Shown here: one piece after another, positions 30,808-48,001 of the stretch
Position numbering within the stretch: the stretch's first letter is position 1
How the letters are laid out: every line of letters begins with the position of its first letter
IMG/VR virus record: IMGVR_UViG_2531839448_000004
Strand: one strand, 5' to 3'
DNA length: 48,406 nt
Origin: a virus
Lineage: Duplodnaviria > Heunggongvirae > Uroviricota > Caudoviricetes
Notes under the pieces: generated by a model
Database searches by the model: none
The model's input: the letters and a program-made list of their open reading frames with translations, nothing else
What the model was told of the DNA's origin: nothing
Translations under genes and position numbers: made by a program

Positions 30808-30816
30808 GAGGCTCTG

Positions 30817-31515
30817 ATGCAGGATATTCCACAGGAAACACATCATGAGACGACACGCCTCACTCAGTCAGCCCAGGTGGTGCTCTGGGAAATCGATCTG
30901 ACAGAGGTCGGTGGTGAACGTTATTTTTTCTGTAATGAGCAGAACGAAAAAGGTGAGCCGGTTACCTGGCAGGGGCGGCAGTATCAGGCATACCCCATTC
31001 AGGGGACGGGATTTGAACTGAATGGCAAGGGCAGTGCTGCCCGTCCGACACTGACGGTTTCTAACCTGCACGGCATGGTCACCGGGATGGCGGAAGACCT
31101 GCAGAGTCTGGTCGGCGGAACGGTGGTCAGGCGTAAGGTTTACGCCCGTTTTCTGGATGCGGTGAACTTCGTCAACGGAAACAGCGACGCCGATCCGGAG
31201 CAGGAGGTGATCAGCCGCTGGCGCATCGAGCAGTGCAGCGAACTGAGTGCGGTCAGTGCCTCCTTTGTGTTGTCCACACCGACGGAAACGGATGGTGCCG
31301 TTTTTCCGGGACGTATCATGCTGGCCAACACCTGCACCTGGACCTATCGCGGCGATGAGTGCGGTTATCACGGTCCGGCGGTCGCGGATGAATATGACCA
31401 GCCAACGTCCGACATCACGAAGGATAAATGCAGCAAATGCCTGAGCGGTTGTAAGTTCCGCAATAACGTCGGCAACTTTGGCGGCTTCCTTTCCATTAAC
31501 AAACTTTCGCAGTAA
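30817..31515 (+). CDS. Minor tail protein gpL-like (Cys-rich C-terminus)
   Basis: 232 aa; C-terminal cysteine cluster CTWTYRGDECGY...CSKCLSGCKF as in lambda L. Confidence 0.9.
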   Translation: MQDIPQETHHETTRLTQSAQVVLWEIDLTEVGGERYFFCNEQNEKGEPVTWQGRQYQAYPIQGTGFELNGKGSAARPTLTVSNLHGMVTGMAEDLQSLVGGTVVRRKVYARFLDAVNFVNGNSDADPEQEVISRWRIEQCSELSAVSASFVLSTPTETDGAVFPGRIMLANTCTWTYRGDECGYHGPAVADEYDQPTSDITKDKCSKCLSGCKFRNNVGNFGGFLSINKLSQ

Positions 31516-31520
31516 ATCCC

Positions 31521-32264
31521 ATGACACAGACAGAATCATCGATTCTGGCGCACGCCCGGCGATGTGCTCCAGCGGAGTCGTGCGGCTTCGTGGTAAGAAC
31601 GCCGGAGGGGGAAAGATATTTCCCCTGCGTGAATATCTCCGGTGAGCCGGAGGCATATTTCCGTATGTCGCCGGAAGACTGGCTGCAGGCAGAGATGCAG
31701 GGTGAGATTGTGGCACTGGTCCACAGCCACCCCGGTGGTCTGCCCTGGCTGAGTGAGGCCGACCGGCGGCTGCAGGTGCAGAGTGATTTGCCGTGGTGGC
31801 TGGTCTGCCGGGGGACGATTCATAAGTTCCGCTGTGTGCCGCATCTCACCGGGCGGCGCTTTGAGCACGGTGTGACGGACTGTTACACACTGTTCCGGGA
31901 TGCTTATCATCTGGCGGGGATTGAGATGCCGGACTTTCATCGTGAGGATGACTGGTGGCGTAACGGCCAGAATCTCTATCTGGATAATCTGGAGGCGACG
32001 GGGCTGTATCAGGTGCCGTTGTCAGCGGCACAGCCGGGCGATGTGCTGCTGTGCTGTTTTGGTTCATCGGTGCCGAATCACGCCGCAATTTACTGCGGCG
32101 ACGGCGAGCTGCTGCACCATATTCCTGAACAACTGAGCAAACGAGAGAGGTACACCGACAAATGGCAGCGACGCACACACTCCCTCTGGCGTCACCGGGC
32201 ATGGCGCGCATCTGCCTTTACGGGGATTTACAACGATTTGGTCGCCGCATCGACCTTCGTGTGA
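31521..32264 (+). CDS. Tail assembly protein gpK-like (JAB/MPN + NlpC/P60 domains)
   Basis: HSHPGG motif of the JAB/MPN domain and a conserved Cys/His region; position after L. Confidence 0.88.
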   Translation: MTQTESSILAHARRCAPAESCGFVVRTPEGERYFPCVNISGEPEAYFRMSPEDWLQAEMQGEIVALVHSHPGGLPWLSEADRRLQVQSDLPWWLVCRGTIHKFRCVPHLTGRRFEHGVTDCYTLFRDAYHLAGIEMPDFHREDDWWRNGQNLYLDNLEATGLYQVPLSAAQPGDVLLCCFGSSVPNHAAIYCGDGELLHHIPEQLSKRERYTDKWQRRTHSLWRHRAWRASAFTGIYNDLVAASTFV

Positions 32265-32833
32265 AAACGGGGGCTGAAGCCATCCGGGCACTGGCCACAC
32301 AGCTCCCGGCGTTTCGTCAGAAACTGAGCGACGGCTGGTATCAGGTACGGATTGCCGGGCGGGACGTCAGCACGTCCGGGTTGACGGCGCAGTTACATGA
32401 GACTCTGCCTGATGGCGCTGTGATTCATATTGTTCCCAGAGTCGCCGGGGCCAAGTCAGGTGGCGTATTCCAGATTGTCCTGGGAGCAGCCGCCATTGCC
32501 GGATCATTCTTTACTGCCGGAGCCACCCTTGCAGCATGGGGGGCAGCCATTGGGGCCGGTGGTATGACCGGCATCCTGTTTTCTCTCGGTGCCAGTATGG
32601 TGCTCGGTGGTGTGGCGCAGATGCTGGCACCGAAAGCCAGGACGCCCACGGCAGCCAGTACAGATAACGGCAAACAGAACACGTATTTCTCGTCACTGGA
32701 TAACATGGTTGCCCAGGGCAATGTTCTGCCTGTTCTGTACGGGGAAATGCGCGTGGGATCACGTGTGGTTTCTCAGGAGATCAGCACGGCAGACGAAGGG
32801 GATGGTGGTCAGGTTGTGGTGATTGGTCGCTGA
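32162..32833 (+). CDS. Tail assembly protein gpI-like
   Basis: 223 aa; RICLYGDLQRFGRRIDLRVKTGAEAIRALATQLPAFRQ...; overlaps the 3' end of K as in lambda. Confidence 0.85.
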   Translation: MAATHTLPLASPGMARICLYGDLQRFGRRIDLRVKTGAEAIRALATQLPAFRQKLSDGWYQVRIAGRDVSTSGLTAQLHETLPDGAVIHIVPRVAGAKSGGVFQIVLGAAAIAGSFFTAGATLAAWGAAIGAGGMTGILFSLGASMVLGGVAQMLAPKARTPTAASTDNGKQNTYFSSLDNMVAQGNVLPVLYGEMRVGSRVVSQEISTADEGDGGQVVVIGR

Positions 32834-32893
32834 TGCAAAACATTTTATGTGAAACCGCCTGCGGGCGGTTTTGTCGTTTATGGAGCGTGACGA

Positions 32894-35800
32894 ATGGGTA
32901 AAGGCAGCAGTAAGGGGCATACCCCGCGCGAAGCAAAGGACAACCTGAAGTCCACGCAGTTGCTGAGTGTGATCGATGCCATCAGCGAAGGGCCGATTGA
33001 AGGTCCGGTGGATGGATTAAAAAGCGTGCTGCTGAACAGTACACCGGTGCTGGACAGTGAGAGGAATACTAACATCTCCGGTGTCACGGTGGTGTTCCGG
33101 GCAGGTGAGCAGGAACAGACACCGCCGGAGGGATTTGAATCATCAGGTTCCGAGACGGTACTGGGTACGGAAGTGAAATACGACACGCCGATCACCCGGA
33201 CCATCACGTCGGCAAACATTGACCGTCTGCGCTTTACCTTCGGTGTGCAGGCACTGGTGGAAACCACCTCAAAGGGGGACAGGAATCCGTCGGAAGTCCG
33301 CCTGCTGGTTCAGATACAACGTAACGGTGGCTGGGTGACGGAAAAAGACATCACCATTAAGGGCAAAACCACCTCGCAGTATCTGGCCTCGGTAGTGGTG
33401 GATAACCTGCCGCCGCGCCCGTTTAATATCCGGATGCGCAGGATGACGCCGGACAGCACCACAGACCAGCTGCAGAACAAAACGCTCTGGTCGTCATACA
33501 CCGAAATCATCGATGTGAAACAGTGCTACCCGAACACGGCACTGGTCGGCGTGCAGGTGGATTCGGAGCAGTTCGGCAGCCAGCAGGTGAGCCGTAATTA
33601 TCATCTGCGCGGGCGTATTCTGCAGGTGCCGTCGAACTATAACCCGCAGACGCGGCAATACAGCGGTATCTGGGACGGAACGTTTAAGCCAGCATACAGC
33701 AATAACATGGCCTGGTGTCTGTGGGATATGCTGACCCATCCACGCTACGGCATGGGGAAACGTCTCGGTGCGGCGGATGTGGACAAATGGGCGCTGTATG
33801 TCATCGGCCAGTACTGCGACCAGTCAGTGCCGGACGGCTTTGGCGGCACGGAGCCGCGCATCACCTGTAATGCGTACCTGACCACACAGCGCAAGGCGTG
33901 GGATGTGCTCAGTGATTTCTGCTCGGCGATGCGCTGTATGCCGGTATGGAACGGGCAGACGCTGACGTTCGTGCAGGACCGGCCGTCGGATAAGGTGTGG
34001 ACCTATAACCGCAGTAATGTGGTGATGCCGGATGATGGCGCGCCGTTCCGCTACAGCTTCAGCGCCCTCAAGGACCGCCATAATGCCGTTGAGGTGAACT
34101 GGATTGACCCGGATAACGGCTGGGAGACGGCGACAGAGCTTGTGGAGGACACGCAGGCCATTGCCCGTTACGGTCGTAACGTCACGAAGATGGATGCCTT
34201 TGGCTGTACCAGCCGGGGGCAGGCACACCGCGCCGGGCTGTGGCTGATTAAAACGGAGCTGCTGGAAACGCAGACCGTGGACTTCAGCGTGGGTGCCGAA
34301 GGGCTTCGCCATGTACCGGGCGATGTCATTGAAATCTGTGATGATGACTATGCCGGTATCAGCACCGGCGGGCGCGTGCTGGCGGTGAACAGCCAGACCC
34401 GGACGCTGACGCTCGACCGTGAAATCACGCTGCCATCCTCCGGTACCACGCTGATAAGCCTGGTTGACGGAAGTGGCAATCCGGTCAGCGTGGAGGTCCA
34501 GTCCGTCACCGACGGCGTGAAGGTAAAAGTGAGCCGTGTTCCTGACGGCGTTGCCGGATACAGCGTGTGGGGGCTGAAGCTGCCGACGCTGCGCCAGCGC
34601 CTGTTCCGCTGCGTGAGTATCCGTGAGAACGATGACGGTACGTATGCCATCACTGCCGTGCAGCATGTACCGGAAAAAGAAGCCATCGTGGATAACGGGG
34701 CGCACTTTGACGGCGACCAGAGCGACACGGTGAATGGTGTCACGCCGCCAGCAGTGCAGCACCTGACTGCCGAAGTCACCGCAGACAGTGGGGAGTATCA
34801 GGTACTGGCCCGCTGGGATACGCCGAAGGTGGTGAAGGGCGTGAGCTTCATGCTTCGCCTGACCGTGGCAGCGGATGACGGCAGTGAGCGGCTGGTCAGC
34901 ACGGCCCGGACGGCGGAAACCACATACCGCTTCAGGCAGCTGGCGCTGGGGAACTACAGGCTGACAGTCCGGGCAGTAAATGCGTGGGGACAGCAGGGCG
35001 ATCCGGCATCGGTATCGTTCCGGATTGCCGCACCGGCAGCGCCGTCGCAGATTGAGCTGACACCGGGGTATTTTCAGATAACCGCCACGCCGCATCTTGC
35101 GGTTTATGATCCGACGGTACAGTTTGAGTTCTGGTTCTCGGAAACGCGGATTACCGATATCAGGCAGGTTGAAACCACAGCCCGCTACCTTGGCACGGGG
35201 CTGTACTGGATAGCCGCCAGTATCAATATCAAACCGGGCCATGATTATTACTTTTATATCCGCAGTGTGAACACCGTTGGCAAATCGGCATTCGTGGAGG
35301 CCGTCGGTCGGGCGAGCGATGATGCGGAAGGTTACCTGGATTTTTTCAAAGGCAAGATAACCGAATCCCATCTCGGTAAAGGGCTGCTGGAAAAAGTCGA
35401 CCTGACGGAAGATAACGCCAGCAGACTGGATCAGTTTTCGAAAGAGTGGAAAGACGCCAACGATAAATGGAATGCCATGTGGGGCGTCAAAATTGAGCAG
35501 ACCGAAGACGGTAAGCATTATGTCGCGGGACTTGGCCTCAGCATGGAGGATACAGAGGAAGGCAAACTGAGCCAGTTTCTGGTTGCCGCTAACCGTATCG
35601 CGTTTATTGACCCGGCAAACGGGAATGAAACGCCGATGTTTGTGGCGCAGGGCAACCAGATATTCATGAACGAAGTGTTCCTGAAACGCCTGACGGCCCC
35701 CACCATTACCAGTGGTGGAAATCCACCGGTATTTTCCCTGACACCGGACGGAAAGCTGACCGCTAAAAATGCGGATATCAGTGGCAGTGTGAATGCGAAC

Positions 35801-36307
35801 TCCGGGACGCTCAACAACGTCACGATAAATGAAAACTGTACGATTAAGGGTATGCTGGAGGCGAATCAGGTCAGAGGTGATTTTGTTAAAACAGTATCCA
35901 AATCATTCCCGAAAAAGGCTGGTACGTGGGGTAACACGGAAACACCAGACGGGACGGTTACAGTCACCATCAGCGATGATCATAACTTTGACCGTCAAAT
36001 CATTATTCCGCCCATTATCTTTAACGGTATAGCGTATGACGATCCGGGAAGTGGTGATAACCCGGGAGGTACAAGGTACACGGGGTATGGTTTTGAAGTT
36101 CGCAAAAACGGCGTATTAATCGCATCCAGAGAAACTAAAGGGGCCATTCCCGGTAGTTACAGTGCGGTTATTGATATGCCGAGTGGCAGGGGAAGCGTCA
36201 CTCTGGAGTTTAAGATTTTCCAGAAAGGCAATCAGGGGGCAGGCAATATCACCGACTGTACGGTGATTGTGACCAAAAAGGCTGCTTCCGGCATCAGTAT
36301 TCGTTGA
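32894..36307 (+). CDS. Host-specificity protein / central tail fibre gpJ-like
   Basis: 1137 aa; position after I; lambda-J-like N-terminus. Confidence 0.92.
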
Positions 36308-36328
36308 AATTGTTATAACCCCAATAAA

Positions 36329-36354
36329 GGGCGTCAGGAATGACGCCTTTTTTA
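36329..36354 (+). terminator. Intrinsic terminator after J
   Basis: GGCGTCAggaaTGACGCCttttttatt. Confidence 0.75.
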
Positions 36355-36377
36355 TTGCAGAAAAGCGAGAGGTAATT

Positions 36378-36977
36378 ATGCGTAAAGTTTGTGCAGCCAT
36401 TTTGTCCGCAGCCATCTGTCTGGTCGTATCCGGTGCGCCTGCATGGGCGTCTGAACATCAGTCCACGCTGAGCGCGGGGTATCTTCATGCCTCGACGAAC
36501 GTTCCCGGCAGCGATGATCTTAACGGGATTAACGTGAAATACCGTTATGAGTTTACGGACACGCTGGGGATGGTGACGTCATTCAGCTATGCAGAAGACA
36601 AGAATCGCCAGCTGACTCATTACAGCGATACCCGCTGGCATGAAGATTCCGTGCGTAACCGCTGGTTCAGCGTGATGGCGGGGCCGTCTGTGCGCGTGAA
36701 TGAATGGTTCAGCGCGTATGCGATGGCGGGTGTGGCTTACAGCCGTATTTCGACTTTCTCCGGGGATTATCTCCGCGTAACTGACAACAAGGGGAAAACG
36801 CACGAAGTGCTGACCGGAAGTGATGACGGTCGCCGCAGCAACACGTCTCTGGCGTGGGGGGCTGGCGTGCAGTTTAACCCGACCGAATCCGTGGCCATTG
36901 ATATTGTTTATGAAGGCTCCGGCAGTGGCGACTGGCGCACTGACGGTTTCATCGTGGGTGTCGGTTATAAGTTCTGA
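36378..36977 (+). CDS. lom: Lom outer-membrane protein (Ail/Lom family)
   Basis: Signal peptide MRKVCAAILSAAICLVVSGAPAWA; beta-barrel pattern; C-terminal ...GVGYKF. Confidence 0.9.
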   Translation: MRKVCAAILSAAICLVVSGAPAWASEHQSTLSAGYLHASTNVPGSDDLNGINVKYRYEFTDTLGMVTSFSYAEDKNRQLTHYSDTRWHEDSVRNRWFSVMAGPSVRVNEWFSAYAMAGVAYSRISTFSGDYLRVTDNKGKTHEVLTGSDDGRRSNTSLAWGAGVQFNPTESVAIDIVYEGSGSGDWRTDGFIVGVGYKF

Positions 36978-37003
36978 TTAGCCAGGTAACACAGTGTTAT
37001 GAC

Positions 37004-37031
37004 AGCCCGCCGGTTCAGGCGGGCTTTTTTG
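37004..37031 (+). terminator. Intrinsic terminator after lom
   Basis: AGCCCGCCggttcaGGCGGGCTtttttg. Confidence 0.75.
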
Positions 37032-37041
37032 TGGGGTGAAT

Positions 37042-40000
37042 ATGGCAGTAAAGATTTCAGGTGTACTGAAAGACGGTGCAGGTAAACCGGTACAGAACTG
37101 CACAATCCAGCTGAAAGCAAAACGTAACAGCACCACGGTGGTGGTGAACACGCTGGCATCTGAAAATCCGGATGAAGCAGGGCGTTACAGCATGGACGTT
37201 GAGTACGGTCAGTACAGCGTTATTCTGTTGGTGGAAGGATTCCCGCCGTCACATGCCGGGACCATCACAGTGTATGAAGATTCCCGACCCGGTACGCTGA
37301 ATGATTTTCTCGGTGCCATGACGGAGGATGATGCCCGTCCGGAGGCACTGCGCCGTTTTGAGCTGATGGTGGAGGAGGTGGCGCGTAACGCGTCCGTGGT
37401 GGCACAGAACACGGCAGCCGCGAAGAAGTCAGCCAGTGATGCCAGCACATCAGCCCGTGAGGCGGCAACCCATGCGACTGATGCTGCAGGCTCAGCACGC
37501 GCAGCCAGCACGTCAGCCGGACAGGCCGCGTCGTCGGCTCAGTCAGCGTCTTCCAGCGCAGGAACGGCATCAACAAAGGCCAGTGAAGCATCGAAAAGTG
37601 CTGCTGCTGCAGAGTCCTCAAAAAGCGCGGCGGCCACCAGTGCCGGTGCGGCGAAAACGTCAGAAACGAATGCGGCAGCGTCACAACAATCAGCCGCCAC
37701 TTCTGCATCCACCGCGACCACGAAAGCGTCAGAAGCTGCCACCTCAGCCCGGGATGCGGCGGCCTCAAAAGAGGCAGCGAAATCATCAGAAACGAACGCA
37801 TCATCAAGTGCCAGTAGTGCAGCTTCCTCGGCAACGGCGGCAGGAAATTCCGCGAAGGCCGCAAAAACGTCTGAGACGAATGCAGATAACAGCGCACAGG
37901 CGGCAGCGGCCTCACAAACTGCATCGGCAAACTCCGCGACAGCAGCCAAAAAATCAGAAACCAACGCGAAAAATAGCGAGGCAGCAGCAAAGAGCAGCGA
38001 AACAAACGCTAAAGCCAGCGAAACTAATGCTAAATCCAGTGAAACAAACGCGGCGAAATCTGCGGCGGACGCACTTAATTATCGCAACCAGGCGCAAGTA
38101 ATTGTAGGCGATAATATCGGTCTTGGCTCAGCACCGCGTGATTGTCCTGATATTTCCGGCAACCCATCAGGGTATATCGGATTTATGCGCATTATGAGTA
38201 ATGCAAAAGGCTTTCCATCGATTGCATCCGGTGAAAGCAGTCTTACGGGGTTTATTAGTCAGGTAGATGGAACACCAGCGTATACAGGTGTATTTCAGGG
38301 ATGGGCTACGCGCTCGCTTTATACTTATCGCTGGAATCCGACAATAGGCCCGCAGTGGACGCGTCACGCAAGAAAAGATGAAGTGGACAGGCTTACTCAA
38401 CTAACAGGTAATACACGCGTATATTGTCAAAATGCAAGCAAATTTTTTGGTATCTACGATTCAGGAACATGGGGTTATTACGATGCAGAGAATAGCGAAT
38501 GGATTCCGCTTTCGATCGCGGCCGGAGGTACTGGTGCGGCAACTATTGATGGTGCCAGAACGAATCTTGGCTTAGGTAGGAACAACAGCCCTCAACTTAA
38601 CAGTCTATTTCTTGATAGATATAGTGATTCGACCAATACATACACATCTAGTGGAATTCTCCATACAAGACTGTTAGCAACTGACAGCACTGTGCGTCTT
38701 GGTGCTGATATGTATGTTGAGACTTTATCAAATGAGCCAGGTCAATTAACAATAAGGTTTACATACGATGGTTCAACTGGTGCTTCAAAATATCTAAACC
38801 TTAACTCAGAAGGTAATTTAATTGTAGATAGTGCGATACTGAGATCAACGGTTGAAAAACCTTTACAAATAAGGAGCGCTAACCCAGCAATAAGATTTAA
38901 TGAAACAGATCGCCCGGCTAACACGCCTACTTATACTCTCATTGCTAATGCTGGCGACTGGTTTATTCAGAAACGCGATTATGATGATGCCGGAAGCGTT
39001 AGTAACGCAATTGCATATAATTTCGCAAACGACAGAATTGATGTGCAAAATCTTAAAGCGTCTGGGTTAATTACAGCTAACTCAGGAATCGCAACATTAA
39101 CAGGTCATGACTGGAACTCTCAGCATACTGATAACGTCGACAAATTTAGACCAATCGCAGGCAGTACAAACGGCCCGGCAGGCTCTATGGTTCTTGGCGG
39201 CATTCATGTTCAATTTAGTAAAAATTATGCTGTGCAGTTCGGAGGCCGCAATTCCGGTTTTTGGGGAAGAACAATTGAAAATGGAACGACGCAGGAATGG
39301 AAGAAATTACTAACAGTAGACGATCTCAATTCATCTACCGATCTTGCTGTCAGGTCATTAACCACATCTAACCCGGTAAAATCTGGCGGAGGGCGAATTG
39401 ATGTCCTTGGAAGCACGTCAGACTATAGCAAAATGGATTGCTTTGTACGTGGGTTTGATAGCACCGGTAATTCTCTCGCGTGGGCGTTGGGTTCATCAGT
39501 CGGCGTAAGTAAGATGCTGTCGCTAAAAAATTTCTTTAGCGGAGCTGAGATACTGCTAAATGGTAATGACGGCGCGGTTCAACTCAAAACAGGTGCTGTT
39601 AACGGGGCTAAAGCGCAGGCGCTCACTATCAACAAGGATGAGGTTAACTCAACTGTTGATTTAACTCTTACAAAACAAACAGGGACTGGAAATCGTTTTG
39701 TTTTACAGAACTTAGGTAATACAGAACTATCATTTGCCGCAAAAGTATGGGGATCAAGTGATCGACAAAACGTTTTTGAGGTTGGAACGTCTGCTGCGTA
39801 TCTGTTTTATGCGCAAAAAACGTCAGCAGGCCAGTTGTTTGATGTAAATGGCGCTATTAATTGCACAACGCTGAATCAGTCATCAGACCGCGACCTTAAA
39901 GACGATATTCTCGTTATCAGCGACGCGACGAAAGCAATCCGTAAAATGAACGGATACACCTACACGCTCAAGGAAAACGGGATGCCTTATGCTGGCGTTA

Positions 40001-40317
40001 TTGCACAGGAAGTAATGGAGGCGATACCAGAAGCTGTGGGATCGTTTACTCATTATGGTGAAGAGTTGCAAGGTCCGACCGTTGACGGCAACGAGCTACG
40101 CGAAGAAACTCGCTATCTTAATGTTGACTACTCCGCCGTGACGGGTTTACTTGTTCAGGTCGCCCGTGAAACAGATGATCGCGTTACCGCGCTGGAAGAG
40201 GAAAACACAACGCTACGTCAAAATCTGGCAACAGCAGGCACCCGGATCAGCACTCTGGAAAATCAGGTAAGCGAACTGGTTGCACTTGTCCGGCAGTTAA
40301 CAGGAAGCGAACATTGA
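37042..40317 (+). CDS. Side tail fibre protein with Ala/Ser-rich repeat collar and C-terminal intramolecular-chaperone (S74-like) domain
   Basis: N-terminus MAVKISGVLKDGAGKPVQNCTIQLKAKRNSTTVV...; C-terminal ...DRDLKDDILVISDATKAIRKMNGYTYTLKENGMPYAGVIAQEV... is chaperone-domain-like. Confidence 0.85.
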   Translation: MAVKISGVLKDGAGKPVQNCTIQLKAKRNSTTVVVNTLASENPDEAGRYSMDVEYGQYSVILLVEGFPPSHAGTITVYEDSRPGTLNDFLGAMTEDDARPEALRRFELMVEEVARNASVVAQNTAAAKKSASDASTSAREAATHATDAAGSARAASTSAGQAASSAQSASSSAGTASTKASEASKSAAAAESSKSAAATSAGAAKTSETNAAASQQSAATSASTATTKASEAATSARDAAASKEAAKSSETNASSSASSAASSATAAGNSAKAAKTSETNADNSAQAAAASQTASANSATAAKKSETNAKNSEAAAKSSETNAKASETNAKSSETNAAKSAADALNYRNQAQVIVGDNIGLGSAPRDCPDISGNPSGYIGFMRIMSNAKGFPSIASGESSLTGFISQVDGTPAYTGVFQGWATRSLYTYRWNPTIGPQWTRHARKDEVDRLTQLTGNTRVYCQNASKFFGIYDSGTWGYYDAENSEWIPLSIAAGGTGAATIDGARTNLGLGRNNSPQLNSLFLDRYSDSTNTYTSSGILHTRLLATDSTVRLGADMYVETLSNEPGQLTIRFTYDGSTGASKYLNLNSEGNLIVDSAILRSTVEKPLQIRSANPAIRFNETDRPANTPTYTLIANAGDWFIQKRDYDDAGSVSNAIAYNFANDRIDVQNLKASGLITANSGIATLTGHDWNSQHTDNVDKFRPIAGSTNGPAGSMVLGGIHVQFSKNYAVQFGGRNSGFWGRTIENGTTQEWKKLLTVDDLNSSTDLAVRSLTTSNPVKSGGGRIDVLGSTSDYSKMDCFVRGFDSTGNSLAWALGSSVGVSKMLSLKNFFSGAEILLNGNDGAVQLKTGAVNGAKAQALTINKDEVNSTVDLTLTKQTGTGNRFVLQNLGNTELSFAAKVWGSSDRQNVFEVGTSAAYLFYAQKTSAGQLFDVNGAINCTTLNQSSDRDLKDDILVISDATKAIRKMNGYTYTLKENGMPYAGVIAQEVMEAIPEAVGSFTHYGEELQGPTVDGNELREETRYLNVDYSAVTGLLVQVARETDDRVTALEEENTTLRQNLATAGTRISTLENQVSELVALVRQLTGSEH
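37600..38060 (+). repeat. In-frame tandem repeats encoding reiterated A-K-(S/T)-S-E-T-N-A motifs within the tail-fibre gene
   Basis: Repeated peptide units AAKTSETNAAAS, AKSSETNASSSAS, AKTSETNADNSAQ, KKSETNAKNSEAAAKSSETNAKASETNAKSSETNAAKSA. Confidence 0.8.
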
Positions 40318-40353
40318 TATCCTTCAAGCCCTGAAGGAGGCTGTTCCTGGTAC

Positions 40354-40488
40354 GTTCAGACTGTTGCTGAGCTGGAGATCGCAACGGAGGAAGAGAAAGC
40401 GTTTCTGGCCGCATGGAAAACATATCGGGTATTGCTGAACCGTGTTGATACAGTAAACCCCGTCTGGCCTCCACCTTCGAAGCGATAG
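40354..40488 (+). pseudogene. Tail-fibre assembly (Tfa) C-terminal remnant
   Basis: Reads [43 protein letters not shown], resembling conserved Tfa C-termini; no start codon and no N-terminal part; in frame directly after the stf stop. Confidence 0.6.
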
Positions 40489-40792
40489 CCCAGCAACTCC
40501 TAAATAGCTGCGCATAATACCGCTACACCTGCCGTTTTACTGACATTTGGAATATTGCGTGAGGGCAACATATCGAGGGGCAGATACAGCTCGGTCAAAT
40601 AGAAAAACAGCCCCACTATTTACCATGCAATAGCTGGTCAAAAGGAGAGCACTATTCCGCTCCGCGTAGTATTTTGTGTTTATAGTGATAACTTAGGTAA
40701 TGCTTAGTCACTAAGATACTTTGCTATTGGAGAGCGATTTATAATGTGGGCGCAACAGATTTTTACTATTGCGCCACTTGCTCTTGTGAGTA

Positions 40793-41881
40793 CTATTCGC
40801 TATAAGTTAATGTTGGTTTTGAAAGTCTTTTGGATATTGTTTTTCCGATATTAATGAATGGAGTTTCAATATATTTATAAATAAAGAATGATAAGAACAA
40901 GCTAAGAGCAATAATGAATGAAAACTTAGAGAACCCAGGTTTTTCATAAAGCGGAATGAAATCCTTAAAATTAATTAAAAATAGCATTACTATCGCATGG
41001 GATAAATACAGAGAGTAAGAGATATCACCTAGCTTACTGAGTATTTTATTTTCCCTTAATCCGAAGTTAACTTCATAAAGTAAAACTCCCGTAATTATGG
41101 AGGCTGCCCACAATCCGAAGTTTAAAGGGCCATGACCAAATCTGAATTGATAAAAATATGAGCAAACACCAAATGAAACCAAAAGGAATGATATCGCCTT
41201 TGCGTTTTTTATATATTTAAATTTTCTGTGTATTATATACAGAAACATCCCATAAACGAATTCTAACAGCATGGGTGATGACATTAAGTTTAGAAAGCCA
41301 ATATGCCAATGACCTGTATCACCAATCGTAAACTTACTTGATAGAGAAAGGCTGTTGGAAAATTTCAACTGTATGAGAAGTAGCGGGACTATCAATGCAA
41401 TAACTGATATTAATAATCTGTTTTTATGACTCAGCGATATTGCAAGCATAAAAATGAAATAAAAATAGACTTCAAAGGTTAATGTCCATGCTGGATAAAG
41501 CACGTTGTATCCGAAGAATGGCGCTTCTGAATAATAGTCCAGGTGAAGCAGAAACAATGAACGCAATAATTCACTTTCGGTGAAGACTGGGTTCAATAAA
41601 AAGAATAAGATTGTGCAAATGAAAAATACAGGGTAAATCCTGAAAAAACGCCTGGTCATAAAGTTAATAGGGGAATTTGTTTCTTTTTTTTGACTCGATA
41701 ACATTATTATAAATCCACTTATAATAAAAAACAGATCAACCCCAAAACCACCACTAATAAACAATAAATCACCTAGATCTTTTTGTGCGTAAACTTCATT
41801 TAGGTATTGTTTATTGTGATATGCAACAACGAGTAATGCTGCTACACCTCGCAAATAGTGAATTGATTTTACCTTCTTCAT
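40793..41881 (-). CDS. Acyltransferase-3 family membrane protein (OafA/Oac-like O-antigen acetyltransferase candidate)
   Basis: 362 aa, polytopic, markedly AT-rich; N-terminal YLRGVAALLVVAYH motif typical of acyltransferase-3 proteins. Confidence 0.75.
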   Translation of the reverse strand: MKKVKSIHYLRGVAALLVVAYHNKQYLNEVYAQKDLGDLLFISGGFGVDLFFIISGFIIMLSSQKKETNSPINFMTRRFFRIYPVFFICTILFFLLNPVFTESELLRSLFLLHLDYYSEAPFFGYNVLYPAWTLTFEVYFYFIFMLAISLSHKNRLLISVIALIVPLLLIQLKFSNSLSLSSKFTIGDTGHWHIGFLNLMSSPMLLEFVYGMFLYIIHRKFKYIKNAKAISFLLVSFGVCSYFYQFRFGHGPLNFGLWAASIITGVLLYEVNFGLRENKILSKLGDISYSLYLSHAIVMLFLINFKDFIPLYEKPGFSKFSFIIALSLFLSFFIYKYIETPFINIGKTISKRLSKPTLTYSE

Positions 41882-42319
41882 TTTTATATAATCACTGTTC
41901 CAATTTTTTTATTTTACAAACAATTCTATCTAGCTCATTAGTACTCAAAGTCAGATTGGTAGCAATAAAAAAACAAGATATGTGATGACATGGCGCGGGG
42001 CTCAGAACCACTCGTGTATTTTCGCCACTGGCTATGACTGGCTGCACCTGCAAGATCTGCCATTTGTGTGCCAGTATACCCAAGCTCTGACTTTATGTTT
42101 ACCAGATCCTCTGGAGTGCCGGGGAGTATAATCGTTGATTAATCGAATCTGCAACTATTTCAGAACGACCTAGGTTAAAGTGCGCTCTGCAGTCTCTTAT
42201 ATAAGGTGATACTTTAATTGTCTGGAAACTGGACAGGTTAGGAAGGAGCAGGAAACATCTTATTATACTTACCGAGTAGCTGCGGGTAAGGGGGGGATTT
42301 CCGTAGCCTGACAGGTAAC

Positions 42320-42594
42320 ATTGACACGTCAACATCGATGGTTTTTTTTATTTTTCCATGTGATGGAGCCCTGGTTGAAATGAAGCGTGAACTGATTGAT
42401 GACTGAACAAAAGTTGGACTGGAAGATGCTCGCGCACAGGGAGGAATTGGTGGACGTCGTCCTAAACTTACATCAGAACAATGGGCGCAGGCCGGGCGAT
42501 TAATTGCATCAAAAGTCCCGCGTCAGAAGGTGGCGATCATCTATGATATTGGTGTATCGACTTTGTATAAGAGGTTTCCAGCCAGGATTATATA
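42320..42594 (+). pseudogene. Decayed C-terminal fragment of a Pin/Hin-family serine DNA invertase
   Basis: Frames give ...GALVEMKRELIDD* then ...GGIGGRRPKLTSEQWAQAGRLIASKVPRQKVAIIYDIGVSTLYKRFPARII*, matching the invertase C-terminal HTH region, with in-frame stops and frame changes; catalytic N-terminus absent. Confidence 0.65.
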
Positions 42595-42918
42595 AAACTG
42601 CAGACACGCCGTATGCAAGACGTGCTGCGGTTGGTTGATGCACTTTCGAGAGTGTATGTATTGAATAATTTCCAACCGTCATTAATTTTATTTATTTTTT
42701 GCATGAGAGGATTTGAACCTCCGAGCCTCGACACCTTATGACAACGCGATATTCCCTTGATGACCGCTATGCGCCAAAATAACCAATTGATAAATAAGTT
42801 GATTTTAATTGGTTGGAAGCAAGTCAGGTCAAATTCAGCATGCCGCTCTCTGTATCGGGTAGTTAAATTTTTCTATAACTGATAGTAATATGTTAAAACT
42901 CACACAGATAAATTATCA

Positions 42919-44901
42919 TTGCTCAACAAGTATAATGGAGTTCCCGTGGATACAGCAGAACATGATGGCAAATTTGCTTGGGCTAGTTTTTATGAGGCTT
43001 TTGCCAACGCGTTACTGACTTGGCGAAATCGTAGAGATGAATTAGTCAAAGGTATTCATCTAATTGCCTCAGGTGTGGAAGGAATGTCCCATCTGCAGGA
43101 CAAATCTATTATGGGAGAGATCTTTCCCTTAAAAGACATTTGTCCGTTTACTACTATGGGCTTGTTCAATCGTAACTTGACCGACAGCAATCGCAAAATT
43201 ATTGCTGCCAAGCTAGCGAATTTGTTGGGCGTGAACGAACCGATTCCTGACTCCTTTGCCGGAATCCCGCTGTTGAATAACCAAAAATCTTGGTTCTTTG
43301 GTTATGAAAAGTCACGCGACCCTAATGACATTGAATGCTTGTGGGAAATGTTCTCGCAGGCAATGACCTTTGCGGATAACCAGAATACTAACTCTGCAGA
43401 CTTCACTGCCGCATATGACATCGCTTCTACAGTAATGAATGTCGGTTGGAATCTCACCATGGGGTTGTACTGGACCCGTCCTTGGTTCTACCCTACTTTA
43501 GATAGCCAGTCGCAGTATTACATTCAGACAGTGTTAAACATTAAGATCATTAAAAACGGGGCAAAAGGTCGCTGTAGTGGACAAAGTTACCTGAGTCTTA
43601 TGCGGGCGCTGAACGAGGTCTTTACCCAACCAAACTATCCGGTTCATTCTTTCCCAGAACTTTCTTTATCAGCGTGGAATACAGATCTTAGCCAGTCTAA
43701 AGATGAGGTGGCAAATAGAACGTGGAAAGCCTCTTTACTGAATAAAATTAAGGCGTTATGCCTGAAAAAAAATGGCCCTTATTTCACTGCTTCGGAGTTG
43801 GAAGAAAACTACTTGGACGTATTCAAGGTAGAGCATCCTGAGAGCAAAACAGTTACAAGCTCAATCTACTTTTATCTACAGAAACTATGCAATGATGATG
43901 AGTTAAAGTCCCTTGAGTCCGGAAATTATGAATACCTGAATTTTGAGAAAAACGAATCCCAGACGATAACTGAGGAAACTGTCGAAGAGAGTGCGCCGTT
44001 GCCAAAACTCACTCACGTTCCTTATGACATCAGTCATCTGGTGCAGGATGGCTGTTTCTTGGAAGAGGCTAAGATCCAACTCACACTTCAGCGCCTGATC
44101 GACAAGAAAAACCTGATATTACAAGGACCACCCGGAACTGGAAAAACCTGGTTAGCGCGACGTCTGGCGTACTGCTTGATGGGAGAAAAAGCACCTGAGC
44201 GTATTAGCGCGGTGCAATTTCACCCGAACCTCTCTTACGAAGACTTTATTCGCGGCTGGCGTCCAGGTAAAGAAGGGCAATTGACGCTAATTGATGGACC
44301 TTTTGTAAATGCAATCAAAACTGCAGTCAATAATCCTACCTCGAAATATGTGGTGATAATTGAAGAGATTAATCGTGGCAATCCGGCGCAAATCTTCGGT
44401 GAAACACTCACGTTGATGGAAGCAGATAAACGCACGCCGACTGAGGCATTATCTCTTTCCTATCCTAAAAATGATGATGAAAAAATATACATTCCTGAGA
44501 ATCTATATATCATCGGTACGATGAATATTGCAGACCGCTCACTCGCACTACTTGACCTAGCGCTGCGCCGTCGTTTCGCGTTTATCGATCTAAAGCCAGC
44601 TTTTAATGACGCGTGGAGAAACTGGGTAAATTATAATTACGCAATTGATTTTGACATGTTAGCATTCATCAAATCTCGACTGACGGTACTTAACGATATG
44701 CTGGCAAAAGATGTTACCTTAGGACCACAGTTTTGTATCGGTCACAGCTATGTCACCCCAGCTATCGGCCAAAAAATCAACGATGCCCAGGCTTGGTATG
44801 AACAAGTCGTTGATACAGAGATCTGCCCTTTGCTCGCCGAATATTGGTTCGATGCTCCAAATAAAGTCGATGAAGCCAGAAAAGTGTTATTAGCAAAATG
44901 A
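42919..44901 (+). CDS. McrB-like AAA+ GTPase with a long (~400 aa) N-terminal region of unrecognised type; start codon uncertain (TTG 42919 or GTG 42946)
   Basis: C-terminal motifs LILQGPPGTGKTW, VVIIEEINRGNPAQIFGETLTLMEADKR, YIIGTMNIADRSLALLDLALRRRFAF match the McrB GTPase family; ATGA overlap with the downstream McrC-like gene. Confidence 0.75.
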   Translation: MLNKYNGVPVDTAEHDGKFAWASFYEAFANALLTWRNRRDELVKGIHLIASGVEGMSHLQDKSIMGEIFPLKDICPFTTMGLFNRNLTDSNRKIIAAKLANLLGVNEPIPDSFAGIPLLNNQKSWFFGYEKSRDPNDIECLWEMFSQAMTFADNQNTNSADFTAAYDIASTVMNVGWNLTMGLYWTRPWFYPTLDSQSQYYIQTVLNIKIIKNGAKGRCSGQSYLSLMRALNEVFTQPNYPVHSFPELSLSAWNTDLSQSKDEVANRTWKASLLNKIKALCLKKNGPYFTASELEENYLDVFKVEHPESKTVTSSIYFYLQKLCNDDELKSLESGNYEYLNFEKNESQTITEETVEESAPLPKLTHVPYDISHLVQDGCFLEEAKIQLTLQRLIDKKNLILQGPPGTGKTWLARRLAYCLMGEKAPERISAVQFHPNLSYEDFIRGWRPGKEGQLTLIDGPFVNAIKTAVNNPTSKYVVIIEEINRGNPAQIFGETLTLMEADKRTPTEALSLSYPKNDDEKIYIPENLYIIGTMNIADRSLALLDLALRRRFAFIDLKPAFNDAWRNWVNYNYAIDFDMLAFIKSRLTVLNDMLAKDVTLGPQFCIGHSYVTPAIGQKINDAQAWYEQVVDTEICPLLAEYWFDAPNKVDEARKVLLAK

Positions 44902-46018
44902 CGACAATAACCGGGAGTGAGCAACATACAGCATCACGTATTCCCATGCGAAATATCTGGATGCTGATGCTGTACGCTTCAGATCTGTTTCGTCAGTTAG
45001 GGCGCAATCAGATCGCAGTAGAAGATAACCCAGCAGAAATCCCCGACCTGGTGGCGACAATCCTCCTTCATGAGATTACGCTGCGCCGACGTCGCAATTT
45101 AAATATGGGATACCAAACTTGTCATGCGGCCCTGAACCGGGTGAGAGGGCGCATTGACATACTGTATACTGCCAGTCATCAACTACTGGAACGGGGACAG
45201 GTTGCCTGCCATTTTCAAGACATAACCCTCAACACCCCCCGAAATCGCTATGTTCGCTGTGCGTTAGAACGTCTGGCCTCAATCATAGTGAAACCGTCTT
45301 TGGCGGCAGATTGCCATTTTATGGCAATATCACTTCGCCGTGAGGGGATAAATGGAGGATATCCTGCCCCCACGAATTACCCTCAGTGTGGCGTTTTGGA
45401 CGCCATGATGCCGCAGATAAACCGATGGTCGATGCCGCACGATTAGCTTTTGAACTGCTGATGCCGACCGAAGATCAAGGCCAATATCTTTTACCTGCGC
45501 CCTCAAATAACCTTTACTGGATGAGAAGACTATTTGAAAAAGGTATCGCTGGCTTATATCGTGTACACCTTGCCAAAACAACTTGGCAGGTCTCTGCAGG
45601 GAAAGAGCTGAAATGGGCGTTGAGCGATCAAAGTGCAGGTAGTGCAGAGATTTTCCCGACAATGAAGTCAGACATTATTCTGGAACACAAGACTGCCCAG
45701 CGGCGTATTATTATCGATACCAAATTTAATTCGATTCTGACAAAGGGTTGGCATCGGGAGCAATCACTACGTAATGGCTATATTTATCAGCTATATACCT
45801 ACCTTAGAACACAGGAGAACAAGACGGATCCGCTTTCGCTCAATGCCGCTGGTCTTCTACTTCATCCAGCTGTTGGCTATATGCTTAATGAGTATGTTGT
45901 CACTCAGGGACATAAGATCCATTTTGCTACAGTAGATATGACGGTAGATGCTAAAGCAATTAAAAAACAATTGCTGGCAATAGCCCATGATTGTGCAGGA
46001 GTCGCGGTTGATGACTAA
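44898..46018 (+). CDS. McrC-like nuclease subunit, split into two frames (44898-45446 and from about 45344 to 46018)
   Basis: N-terminus ...IPMRNIWMLMLYAS... (McrC: IPVRNIYYMLTYAW); second frame carries the D-x-K nuclease core RIIIDTKF and YIYQLYTYL (McrC: ILIVDAKYY, NLYQLMNYL). Confidence 0.6.
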
Positions 46019-46715
46019 CCATCCTATAAGGCACTGGCTGTAATATAATCAATAGTTTCAATTAAGTAGCTGTTATCCGTGCTTAGTCATCATATGACGC
46101 ACCACGGTCTAATTTTCCTGCTCATACATTGATATATCCTTGTCGAGCCCGGAAAGTCGCAGTCCACTATTAGGTATACCGATTGCCAGCACCAAAAGCT
46201 TCTTTGTAATTATTATATCGGGGAATGCCTATTTTTTAGTGACAATATCAGATAGCAATTAATAAGCGGTGCCGGTAATGGATGTTATGTTTAATGTATA
46301 GATACAGTCATCATAAACTAAACGTCTGTTGTTCGCTCATAACCGACATTTATCTCAGTTATGGAAGATAATTATGTATGCAGATAATGGGGCAGACAGT
46401 CGTGGAGTAAACAAGGTTTTGCACTGATTGGCGGCATCGTTATCTTATTTTTAATTATGTGCCTCTTAACATAAGTTGGGACAAAACAGAGACACATAAG
46501 GTCTCACAAAGGTCTGCAAGGCCTCACATGTATTGAGGTGTTAATAAAATGTAGACTTGTAATTTGGATATAAATGGTAGAGAAAACCTTTCCCCAAAAT
46601 AAAAACGAACGTCAATGAAATCAAACGGTTGAATAAAGTTGATTTTGGCTAATAAAAAACAATAAAATATTTTTATGATTAAATATCAATGACTTGAACT
46701 TAATGTTTTTATATA

Positions 46716-46880
46716 CTGTTACGCCATATGGGTTGGACTGAAGCGGCTGACCTGATTGTTAAAGGTATGGAAGGCGCAATCAATGCCAAGACCGTAACCT
46801 ATGACTTCGAACGTCTGATGGAAGGCGCTAAATTGCTGAAATGTTCAGAGTTTGGTGACGCGATCATCAAGAATATGTAA
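46716..46880 (+). pseudogene. icdC: 3' fragment of isocitrate dehydrogenase gene icd (prophage attR duplication)
   Basis: Translation [54 protein letters not shown] matches the Icd C-terminus; no upstream icd sequence. Confidence 0.8.
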
Positions 46881-46903
46881 TCTCTCCATGTGTTAAATAT
46901 TGA

Positions 46904-46935
46904 AACGGGCGTATAACACGCCCGTTGTTTTATTT
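46904..46935 (+). terminator. icd-type intrinsic terminator
   Basis: AACGGGCGTataacACGCCCGTTgttttattt. Confidence 0.7.
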
Positions 46936-46982
46936 ATGTGGATATTATTAATAGCATATCGAGCATATTTATATAAAACCCT

Positions 46983-47306
46983 TTACTTGAGCCCATATGG
47001 GCATATTTTTATAATGCAACTATTATGCAAACATTTATTTGTTATTTTGCTTTCTCCTGGAGGACACTCTTGACTGCTTTTGAGTAGACTCCATAAATCC
47101 TTGTTGAATGGTGCGATGTTATAAATAGTAATAGGATATTCTTTATCTTTAAGGATAATACCAGATTTAACCGGTTTAAATATACTGCCAGGAGGGAGAA
47201 ATATAGTAGATTGATACCAGATGATCATTTTCATATCACCCCATATGACTGAAAAAGATATACCGCATGTAGGTTGAATTACCGTGTCAATTACTATCCA
47301 CTTCAT
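46983..47306 (-). CDS. iraM: IraM anti-adaptor protein (RpoS stabiliser)
   Basis: [107 protein letters not shown], 107 aa. Confidence 0.88.
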
Positions 47307-47744
47307 TTGTTATGTCTTATCCCACGGTATTTAATATAGTTCATTTGGATATTCATTTCTTTATTTTGCATATGAGTATATTACCCCTTCAAAAAATAAA
47401 TTAATTAAAACGATTGCTTATATAAAACAAAATTTAAAGCAAGGAATCTCAATGGATGTTAAACAAAATGAGATTTAGTGAAAACAATAAATTATTCACT
47501 TCGTTTTAGATTTGTTTAGCTATAATGTTATACATTCAAATGACTGAACATCCTGTAATTAAAACATAGCCTTTATGCTACTTGGTGCCAATTTGCTAAA
47601 CATTATGGTTGCTTTTTTATATAACGATAATAATGAATATAAGCATGACATGAGAATAAGGTTCCAATTTTTGAGTTATATAGGAAAGGTTTAACCTGTT
47701 CCTGGCTAAAATACATATAACTGGATGATGACTAAACCAAAACA

Positions 47745-47795
47745 CATGTGCGTTAAGTATTGAAACGGGCGTATGGCACACCCGTTGTTTTTATA
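47745..47795 (+). repeat. Second copy of the icd 3'-end/terminator sequence
   Basis: catgtgcgttaagtattgaaacgggcgtatggcacacccgttgttttta closely parallels 46888-46933 (catgtgttaaatattgaaacgggcgtataacacgcccgttgtttta). Confidence 0.7.
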
Positions 47796-48001
47796 AATAT
47801 ATTAACCGTTATAAAATAACGTATAGAAAGTCAAGTGATCACATTTCAAATATCAATTTGATAGTATTGGCCTGGTGATTATTTATGGGTAGCAATAAAA
47901 GGACAGTATTTATCATCCATAGGGATAGTCTCTGTACTTTTATTCCCATTATGCTAATGCCTTACTGAATTATGAAGCATTTCTTTAGTATCCAACTTTA
48001 G

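Follow-up and report, generated by a model that had tools for sequence, protein, structure and literature searches.

The window analysed here, that is, the whole stretch of 48,406 nucleotides of the IMG/VR virus record IMGVR_UViG_2531839448_000004, carries a side tail fibre gene whose 3' end is followed by the orphan end of a tfa gene. The features in and around this fibre module are as follows:

37036..40317, plus strand: stf, the side tail fibre gene (open reading frame list; 1093 codons from GTG 37036; the RefSeq start is ATG 37042, giving 1091 aa)
37042..37443, plus strand: tail-attachment domain phage_tail_N, Stf aa 3-136 (Pfam PF08400, E 2.5e-71)
39880..40314, plus strand: Peptidase_S74 intramolecular chaperone domain of Stf (Pfam PF13884, motif, predicted fold)
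40315..40353, plus strand: TGA stop (40315-40317) and 36-nt spacer, with AAGGAGG at 40334-40340, a 7-bp hairpin at 40320-40338, and no start codon
40354..40488, plus strand: tfa 3' fragment, about TfaR aa 147-191, with the natural stop TAG at 40486-40488 (PF02413, tblastn, RefSeq pseudogene)
40793..41881, minus strand: acyltransferase gene of low GC between the tfa and invertase remnants, context outside the fibre module (Pfam Acyl_transf_3, E 2.6e-34)
42148..42583, plus strand: dead Pin/Din-family serine invertase remnant, PinE aa 36-181, frameshifted near 42290 and without the catalytic N-terminus (tblastn)

RefSeq names the stf product 'prophage tail fiber N-terminal domain and S74 family endopeptidase-containing protein', and the product matches PHROG 6578 (tail fibre) with an E value of 0. 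Its N-terminal ~350 aa, within which the attachment domain falls, are common to StfR-type fibres. At the DNA level, identity with Rac-type stf amounts to 95.5% up to window position ~37882; the similarity of the proteins ends at aa ~351, and beyond this point the sequences are unrelated. A search of NCBIfam gave zero matches for both Stf and the remnant peptide.

At the other end of the protein, PF13884 matches aa 950-1001 (E 4.7e-13, 49.7 bits against a cutoff of 22). The motif SSDRDLK, whose first residue is aa 949 (nt 39880), has its S, D, L, and K invariant or nearly so among 26 homologues, and it aligns with SSDRRIK in the sequence match to PDB 6f45. The AF2 model of the S74 domain (pLDDT 81) comprises a beta region and a long C-terminal helix (103-160), and its only Foldseek matches with E <= 1e-3 are 7dc3 (MyRF ICA) and 3gw6 (K1F IMC), with a probability of 1.0; the low TM-scores (0.33-0.47) reflect the use of a monomer model for a domain that is trimeric. 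Pfam, the 6f45 alignment, and the two fold matches thus bear out the initial annotation in taking the stf C-terminus for an intramolecular chaperone domain. Furthermore, a Ser and a Lys five residues apart (S-D-x-x-x-K) are present at the predicted cleavage site, and the domain probably cuts itself off at SSDRDLK by means of this predicted Ser-Lys dyad. Membership in the S74 Pfam family and S-D-x-x-x-K at the domain start are features shared with the K1F endosialidase (3GW6), the T5 L-shaped fibre pb1, S16 gp37 (6F45), and the MyRF ICA (7DC3); a further likeness to these S74/IMC systems lies in the position at the extreme fibre C-terminus, the long C-terminal helix, and the fold match to 7dc3/3gw6. 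In contrast to them, the Stf tip is a graft onto a lambda-type Stf N-terminal domain, and autoproteolysis is here only predicted.

It had also been proposed that such a domain makes a separate Tfa protein unnecessary, and for this the support is indirect. The complete genome of phage mEp460 has the same fibre end followed by the remnant only, with no intact tfa in the whole genome, and in phage contigs of ~54 kb the genes of related S74 fibres stop at a TAA with an intrinsic terminator directly behind it and no tfa. Tfa would then be dispensable for an S74-tipped fibre. The side fibres are themselves dispensable in lambda, and therefore the viability of a phage is no proof that its fibre folds without Tfa.

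Past the TGA, the stf frame stays open for 56 codons up to the stop at 40486-40488, and the last ~45 of these are the C-terminal end of Tfa. On the 56-codon peptide, Pfam Caudo_TAP (PF02413) is found with an E value of 2.7e-11 (44.2 bits against a cutoff of 22.1), peptide residues 14-51 aligning with profile positions 87-127 of 131, and tblastn with K-12 TfaR as the query places aa 147-179 of 191 on 40354-40452 (72.7% identity, E 3e-10). Judged by their scores, the S74 and Caudo_TAP matches are both far beyond chance. With the same TfaR query, no further Tfa-like pieces and no intact tfa were found elsewhere in the whole window. The remnant has none of the marks of a full-length Tfa, namely an open reading frame of ~190 aa, a start codon, and an N-terminal fibre-binding domain: the earliest in-frame ATG, GTG, or TTG past the stf stop is TTG 40432, the list of open reading frames holds none of at least 30 aa on the plus strand at the remnant, and RefSeq annotates 40366-40488 as a partial tfa pseudogene, 'missing N-terminus'. 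Hence the claim that an in-frame Tfa C-terminus of ~45 codons, with neither a start nor an N-terminal part, follows the stf stop was confirmed by Pfam, by the TfaR search, and by the list of reading frames, and the similarity of this downstream peptide to Tfa proved significant in the first two of these searches.

In Tfa proteins, the N-terminal domain binds the fibre and is variable, and the helical C-terminal domain serves trimerisation and is conserved (PMC9608196). The 11-residue tail of the remnant is similar to the P1-like Tfa tail SNPVWPTPP; a protein search with the remnant peptide returned only fragments of 27-76 aa and is uninformative on intact Tfa proteins with the same tail. C-terminal pieces of tfa are also met in degraded prophages, such as tfaX and tfaD in DLP12 of K-12, and Rfam IS009 is modelled on such sequence; unlike the remnant, tfaX and tfaD adjoin no S74 fibre. 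We considered whether decay of the remnant (D>N in RVDT at 11 loci, and other seemingly 'private' changes) could serve as a sign of non-function, and rejected this, as an intact 194-aa Tfa (locus L230) has RVNT together with KALLAAW. The substitution pattern is uninformative because these variants occur in an intact Tfa too, and the panel of intact tfa genes used for comparison was too narrow (11 haplotypes, all TfaR-like).

Between the stop and the remnant, the first 12 codons (40318-40353) are not Tfa-derived. This spacer is identical or near-identical across all S74 loci and missing from intact stf-tfa loci, and all 51 occurrences of its motif in IMG/VR are S74-tfa junctions. The donor of the cassette and spacer was sought in intact stf-tfa loci, in the related ~54-kb phage fibres, and in IMG/VR, and was not found there.

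The junction as a whole (TGA, spacer of about 36-37 nt, tfa 3' end) is present in 802 of 5426 complete E. coli genomes, at 1376 places, with icd, bioA/ybhB, and ydfJ among the attachment sites; 820 of these genomes have this stf end. It is found in the isolated phages mEp460, Ayreon, and PhiR70_1 as well. For IMG/VR, 80 loci were fetched; 57 of them have a fibre of this type and extend 140 nt or more past it, and the TGA, the same spacer, and the tfa remnant occur in all 57. In the three phages and in E. coli prophages with PHROG 6578 fibres, the fibre end, the stop, the spacer, and the remnant all recur at 92-100% identity; what only a minority has is the last ~36 nt of the remnant and the downstream region with the acyltransferase gene. 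All loci share one and the same left breakpoint, which argues for a single origin and points to an illegitimate junction that happened once. The event is thus neither local to this prophage nor new, but an old junction carried by ~15% of complete E. coli genomes. It is also already known, RefSeq annotating an S74 tail fibre and a partial tfa pseudogene in hundreds of public genomes.

The right side of the junction has a different history. From the stf end through the spacer to nt 33 of the remnant, nucleotide diversity stays at 0.021-0.025; over remnant nt 34-66 it jumps to 0.159. In the four-gamete test, all four gametes occur at 48 of 171 site pairs. Moreover, in at least 30 loci the remnant tail and the 100 nt past its stop are 88-100% identical to the sequence that comes after intact tfa genes with the same tail. 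Being conserved among tfa genes, the tfa 3' end therefore serves as a right-hand homology arm. With the stf-tfa modules of lambda, Rac, and Qin (StfR-TfaR-PinR of E. coli K-12), the locus has in common the Stf N-terminal ~350 aa and the remnant itself, which corresponds to the last ~45 TfaR codons, and at some S74 loci the downstream flank, including pinQ/pinR, is identical; the difference is that the distal stf and tfa codons 1-146 are here replaced by the S74 region, so that no functional Tfa is left. That the arrangement is a recombination scar, as initially suggested, is supported by the identical left breakpoint everywhere and by right flanks that run into resident stf-tfa contexts. The phage mEp460_ev081 was at one point taken as a direct example of a crossover within the remnant; this was rejected, the swapped block being far larger (stfR-tfaR-pinR through int), and the phage shows only the exchangeability of the module.

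We conclude that the tfa remnant very probably has no function and is a scar left by recombination where a mobile cassette for the tail-fibre tip ends on its 3' side. Four observations stand behind this conclusion: what the domains are, one left breakpoint common to all loci, a right side of mosaic make-up, and the lack of an intact tfa. In the scenario that we favour, an ancestral lambdoid stf-tfa module would have lost its distal stf and the first ~146 tfa codons, and a foreign distal fibre region ending in a Peptidase S74 domain would have taken their place, bringing its own stop and 36 nt of its own downstream sequence, through one illegitimate event at about 40353/40354. The new fibre would trimerise aided by its own C-terminal domain and would then be cut by that domain at SSDRDLK, through the Ser-Lys dyad, with no need of Tfa. 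What survives of tfa, ~100-135 nt, encodes only a part of the conserved helical C-terminal domain and would have no normal start for translation. The cassette would be left with two homology arms, the conserved stf 5' region on the left and the tfa 3' end on the right, and by virtue of these two conserved arms homologous recombination could copy the S74 tip over the resident stf-tfa of other lambdoid prophages. Such copying would account both for the presence of the junction in many prophages and for the patchwork of resident tfa alleles in the 3' half of the remnant. That tail-fibre genes are exchanged as modules is textbook knowledge of phages, and a putative change of receptor specificity, or host-range switch, brought about by the S74 tip is a reasonable inference. 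What counts against the scar reading is the open, in-frame state of the remnant, which alone could suggest constraint, along with the Shine-Dalgarno-like AAGGAGG of the spacer and the search for a donor that gave none.

One alternative extends this explanation without contradicting it: the remnant may have been kept for the benefit that a portable 3' homology arm brings to the cassette, cassettes that keep the arm having spread and others not. The presence of the remnant in every lambdoid copy examined (57 of 57 loci; 802 genomes), the near-absence of the stf end without it (820 against 802 genomes), and the crossovers that fall demonstrably inside it all agree with this idea. But a neutral scar of recent common origin, simply hitch-hiking, predicts the same pattern, zero arm-less cassettes were found for comparison, and second-order selection is not demonstrable by sequence alone, so we consider a selected arm possible but rather unlikely.

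Much less probable is that the remnant is translated, either by UGA readthrough extending the chaperone domain or from a non-canonical start behind AAGGAGG, to act as a mini-Tfa trimerisation helper. To be sure, the fragment corresponds to the conserved helical trimerisation domain of Tfa, it shares its frame with stf, in 56 of 57 loci this frame runs open to the natural stop of Tfa, and the AAGGAGG at 40334-40340 is strong and Shine-Dalgarno-like. Against this, there is no in-frame ATG, GTG, or TTG upstream of 40432, AAGGAGG lies partly within the 7-bp hairpin, and the fibre-binding N-domain is absent; all three polymorphic sites of the spacer alter the in-frame amino acid (P>S, W>R, G>S), and related S74 fibres work in phages without such a sequence. 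An extension of the chaperone domain would, besides, be cleaved away with the domain. As for the open frame, it is accounted for by allele exchange with intact tfa genes; agreement in frame between stf and the remnant has a prior chance of one in three and counts once, as a single inherited state, rather than as a coincidence repeated at each locus, and the in-frame arrangement is without demonstrable meaning. If the remnant were expressed after all, a Tfa-type helix would be joined with an intramolecular chaperone in a hybrid of two known fibre-folding strategies.

A small RNA or structured 3' UTR element is less credible still, although Rfam IS009 (RF02111) matches 40257-40457 over the full model length (69.1 bits, E 1e-15): the family's gathering threshold, 117, is not reached, the consensus of the model is nothing other than tfa coding sequence, with a good alignment over the tfa-derived part only, the fold z-score is -0.11, and neither a promoter nor a terminator was found at the segment. 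Searches by sequence analysis thus gave no evidence for translation or RNA action of the remnant. Finally, that the junction arose locally and recently here, or that several prophages each acquired it through an illegitimate event of their own, has nothing in its favour beyond the local look of a truncated gene and is already contradicted by a breakpoint and spacer that are identical at every locus, across attachment sites and free phages, which leaves it a negligible chance.

As a discovery the scar carries little weight, the gene pair being already annotated publicly. It is nevertheless a worked example of how a chaperone-containing fibre tip can displace a pair of fibre and chaperone genes, of how a short conserved gene end can act as a recombination arm that spreads a new tip among prophages, and of how an open in-frame remnant need not function while it swaps alleles with intact paralogues. 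In practical terms, side fibres of the lambda type that do without a separate chaperone could be engineered with the conserved boundaries as natural splice points, the N-terminal region of stf at one end and the final ~100 nt of tfa at the other.

The surroundings also bear on the suggestion that the replaced module was probably invertible, which stood in part. The dead Pin remnant 1.7 kb downstream of the tfa remnant, the gene order of e14 (stf-tfa...pin-mcr-icd'), and the P1-like Tfa tail speak for it; an inverted second copy and crossover sites above chance were not found. Specifically, tblastn with TfaP, TfaE, StfP, and StfE detected no second inverted tfa'/stf' set in the window, and a scan for inverted crossover sites with the core AAACCnnGGTTT gave two matches with one mismatch each, where chance alone predicts 2.1; both lie outside stf. 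Nor was an intact serine invertase met beside the segment, the Pin homologue covering aa 36-181 only and being frameshifted; RefSeq calls it a 'recombinase family protein, frameshifted, internal stop, missing N-terminus'. The locus therefore resembles the e14 P-region and the Mu G and P1 C segments in its icd attachment site, its stf-tfa...pin-mcr-icd' order, its Pin homologue, and its P1-like Tfa tail, and differs from them in having a truncated and frameshifted invertase, no inverted tfa'/stf' copy, and no crossover match above chance. An intact ancestor of the right end was sought, and pin is 'missing N-terminus' in all three annotated copies inspected (CV839-06, AR_0369, and PK5086). Collinearity with CV839-06, at first assumed for the whole window, was ruled out as such, since it extends over 30.8-48.4 kb only. 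The acyltransferase gene has a GC content of 0.28-0.36 against ~0.5 in its flanks, and the stretch just past the remnant (40425-40800, its last 8 nt in the acyltransferase gene) occurs in 32 genomes only; the pin'-mcrBC-icd' arrangement is present in 232 genomes.

The side tail fibre gene (stf) and the fragment of a tail fibre assembly gene (tfa) behind it are as the initial annotation had observed, and its core interpretation holds. The features concerned are the following.

37036 (GTG; RefSeq start, ATG 37042) to 40317, plus strand: stf, from the ORF listing
40354-40488, plus strand: orphan 3' remnant of tfa
40793-41881, minus strand: acyltransferase-3 family gene (GC 0.28-0.36), between the tfa and pin remnants
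42148-42583: Pin-family recombinase remnant (PinE aa 36-181), frameshifted and without the catalytic N-terminus
42919-46022, plus strand: gene for an McrB-like AAA_5 ATPase (ORF of 660 aa), together with mcrC, next to the icd' duplication on its inner side

The fibre begins with the prophage tail fibre N-terminal domain (Stf aa 3-136, Pfam), and the claim that it ends in an intramolecular chaperone domain was borne out. Pfam places Peptidase_S74 (S74) at aa 950-1001 (score 49.7 bits, cutoff 22), and the motif SSDRDLK, of which S, D, L and K are invariant or nearly so in an alignment of 26 homologues, starts at aa 949, i.e., nt 39880, where the initial annotation placed its start. A sequence search with the C-terminal 293 aa matched a single solved structure, the long tail fibre tip of phage S16 (6f45), whose SSDRRIK is aligned opposite SSDRDLK. 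The AlphaFold model of the last 164 aa (mean pLDDT 81) is made up of short helices, a beta part and, at the C-terminus, a single long helix, and among PDB entries only 7dc3 (MyRF ICA) and 3gw6 (the K1F endosialidase intramolecular chaperone) matched it at E <= 1e-3, both with probability 1.0. In sequence, motif, position and modelled fold, the Stf C-terminus agrees with the S74 family, and self-cleavage is predicted for it; the RefSeq name is 'prophage tail fiber N-terminal domain and S74 family endopeptidase-containing protein'. Compared with Rac-type StfR, Stf retains 95.5% DNA identity up to about 37882 and protein similarity to aa ~351, beyond which the two are unrelated.

Past the stf stop codon (TGA, 40315-40317) a further 56 codons can be read in the stf frame before TAG at 40486-40488. 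The Tfa peptide, reported to lie immediately after the stop, does share this frame, but the 12 codons directly after the stop do not derive from Tfa. Caudo_TAP (Pfam) recognizes the 56-codon peptide at 44.2 bits (cutoff 22.1) over profile positions 87-127 of 131 only, and aa 147-179 of the 191-aa K-12 TfaR align to 40354-40452, which confirms a Tfa C-terminus; comparison with K-12 TfaR found no other Tfa-like sequence in the window. The remnant does lack a start codon and N-terminal part, as had been reported, since it matches TfaR aa 147-179 only and the earliest in-frame ATG, GTG or TTG after the stf stop is at 40432. In RefSeq, 40366-40488 carries the label 'tail fiber assembly protein, incomplete, missing N-terminus'.

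The junction of stf end, TGA, 36-nt spacer and tfa remnant is neither local nor new: it is common among lambdoid prophages of E. coli and has been annotated there before. Of 5426 complete E. coli genomes, 820 carry this stf end at all and 802 were hit by a 131-nt junction probe, at 1376 places and never below 90% identity. Junction-bearing prophages occupy the attachment sites icd, bioA/ybhB and ydfJ, one ydfJ locus having an intact pinQ directly after the junction, and the isolated phages mEp460, Ayreon and PhiR70_1 carry it as well. Among 80 IMG/VR loci fetched for the fibre end, all 57 window-type loci with enough downstream sequence show TGA, the same spacer and the remnant, and all 51 occurrences of the spacer motif in IMG/VR lay in this junction. 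On phage contigs of ~54 kb, more distant relatives of the fibre end (78-84% identical as protein) have TAA followed by an intrinsic terminator, and no tfa sequence follows the fibre end in those contigs. The reading of the junction as a recombination scar is made precise: the left breakpoint lies at about 40353/40354 in every copy, which points to one ancestral illegitimate event, and the right boundary falls inside the tfa 3' end.

On its right side the junction is mosaic. Across 56 copies, nucleotide diversity is 0.021 for the final 150 nt of stf and 0.025 for stop plus spacer; within the remnant it is 0.024 in the first 33 nt, 0.159 in nt 34-66 and 0.048 in nt 67-98, and 48 of 171 biallelic site pairs within 99 nt display all four allele combinations. 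The 57 copies encode 35 different remnant peptides, with tails such as ALP, VAPIG, TNPVRE, ANPVRE and AVPVME that also occur in intact Tfa proteins of 191-194 aa. At 30 or more loci the 100 nt past the remnant stop are 88-100% identical to the flank of an intact tfa with the same tail, and in one (L004) the remnant runs on into the K-12 tfaR-pinR flank; the S74 block thus has its right boundary somewhere within the conserved tfa 3' end, at a point that varies among loci. In the simplest reading, the S74 cassette would spread by homologous recombination, with arms in two conserved stretches, the stf 5' region and the last ~100 nt of tfa, and each transfer would cost the recipient locus its distal fibre and the N-terminal domain of its Tfa. 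This agrees with the known Tfa domain roles, the N-terminal domain being variable and fibre-binding and the C-terminal helical domain conserved and mediating trimerisation (PMC9608196, summarising work on Mu Tfa). What we add is this population picture, with one ancestral breakpoint, the tfa end as recombination arm and a frame kept by allele exchange.

A deposited example of the reverse swap was seen in the mEp460-derived phage mEp460_ev081, in which, relative to mEp460, the S74 stf end, dinI and the int region are exchanged for a Rac-like block (stfR-tfaR-pinR-ydfK-int) whose left crossover lies in or before the stf 5' region.

The remnant might alternatively have a function: it is in phase with stf, its frame is uninterrupted in all but one of 57 copies (L029 is frameshifted), and AAGGAGG stands ahead of it in the spacer (40334-40340). 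But it has neither a usable start codon nor a fibre-binding domain, all three polymorphic spacer sites alter an in-frame residue, and AAGGAGG is half buried in a perfect 7-bp hairpin (40320-40338, TCCTTCA-AGCCC-TGAAGGA) that starts 3 nt past the stf stop, has no U-run and is invariant in its stem in all copies, the sole polymorphism being in the loop. Changes such as D>N in RVDT were considered as remnant decay and rejected, the same variants occurring in an intact Tfa (L230); most of the polymorphism of the remnant thus comes from intact tfa genes and is uninformative on function. It is because of these imported alleles that the frame is open, maintained via allele exchange and not by function. 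The search for a promoter or terminator at the remnant segment found neither, and the RNA of the segment has no excess structure (z-score -0.11). The Rfam IS009 sRNA (RF02111), matching 40257-40457, was likewise rejected at 69.1 bits against a gathering score of 117; its model was built on tfa coding sequence, the consensus reading as the 3' coding region, and it therefore flags Tfa genes or fragments in prophages, among which K-12 tfaX and tfaD may be cited, and not a demonstrated RNA.

Would such a fibre make a separate Tfa unnecessary, as had been proposed? In the complete mEp460 genome no tfa is annotated, and the remnant (TfaR aa 147-191) is the only Tfa sequence. Together with the lack of another tfa in the window and the terminator-only context in the ~54-kb phages, this supports a Tfa-independent S74 fibre, albeit indirectly, because side fibres are dispensable for lambda plaque formation. 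One paper that reports the sequencing of mEp460 says lytic and lysogenic growth was confirmed for its 26 focus phages, which may or may not include mEp460 (PMC9836094).

The suggestion that the replaced module was probably invertible is only partly sustained. In its favour are the Pin remnant, a gene order mirroring that of e14 (stfP-tfaP / tfaE-stfE / pinE / mcrA / icd'), and the remnant's unusual tail, which resembles the RVDTSNPVWPTPP tail of a Tfa in a P1-like phage, whose gene stands in an inverted-pair arrangement adjoining invertase genes. Against it, the window contains no inverted second tfa/stf copy, and the search for crossover-site-like sequence found none above chance. In Rac- and Qin-type loci, moreover, the annotation shows pin beside tfa but no inverted tfa'/stf' set in addition. 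An invertible ancestor of the stf-tfa module is no more than plausible. The acyltransferase gene separates the tfa remnant from the truncated pin.

From ~30.8 to 48.4 kb the window matches, at 99.3% identity, a lambdoid prophage of E. coli CV839-06 that occupies the icd (e14) attachment site, with the order J, lom, stf, partial tfa, acyltransferase (minus strand), partial recombinase, McrBC-like pair, icd duplication and iraM. Where e14 has mcrA at the prophage end, the McrBC pair here represents a different type IV restriction module, and this pin'-mcrBC-icd' end was found in 232 genomes. The sequence from just 3' of the remnant to the acyltransferase start occurs in only 32 complete E. coli genomes; the acyltransferase may be an O-antigen-modifying accessory gene. 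Collinearity with the icd prophage is limited to the right 17.6 kb (30814-48400), not 1-30813, and 900-24000 corresponds at 99.9% identity to another CV839-06 prophage, ~0.43 Mb away on the opposite strand. Because the two halves match separate prophages, the source genome seems to carry a hybrid of two prophages recombined in tail genes, or an inversion between them.

Two minor observations concern neighbouring sequence. E. coli AR_0369 (L012, 4839-5050) and an IMG/VR contig (L206) have a further deletion, from mid-lom to a point just past the stf stop (...GTGAAATAT|CCTTCAAGC...), which took the whole stf and left spacer and remnant; ATATC at both parental sites suggests that it was microhomology-mediated. 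The non-coding 40496-40660, just 3' of the remnant, matches, at ~75%, sites without annotation in some 100 other E. coli records; one such site is flanked by an Rhs toxin/immunity module and an ISEc1 transposase, and another follows a TnpB gene by ~420 nt on a plasmid that bears a Dam methylase and phage baseplate genes as well. The stretch may be the remnant of a mobile-element end.
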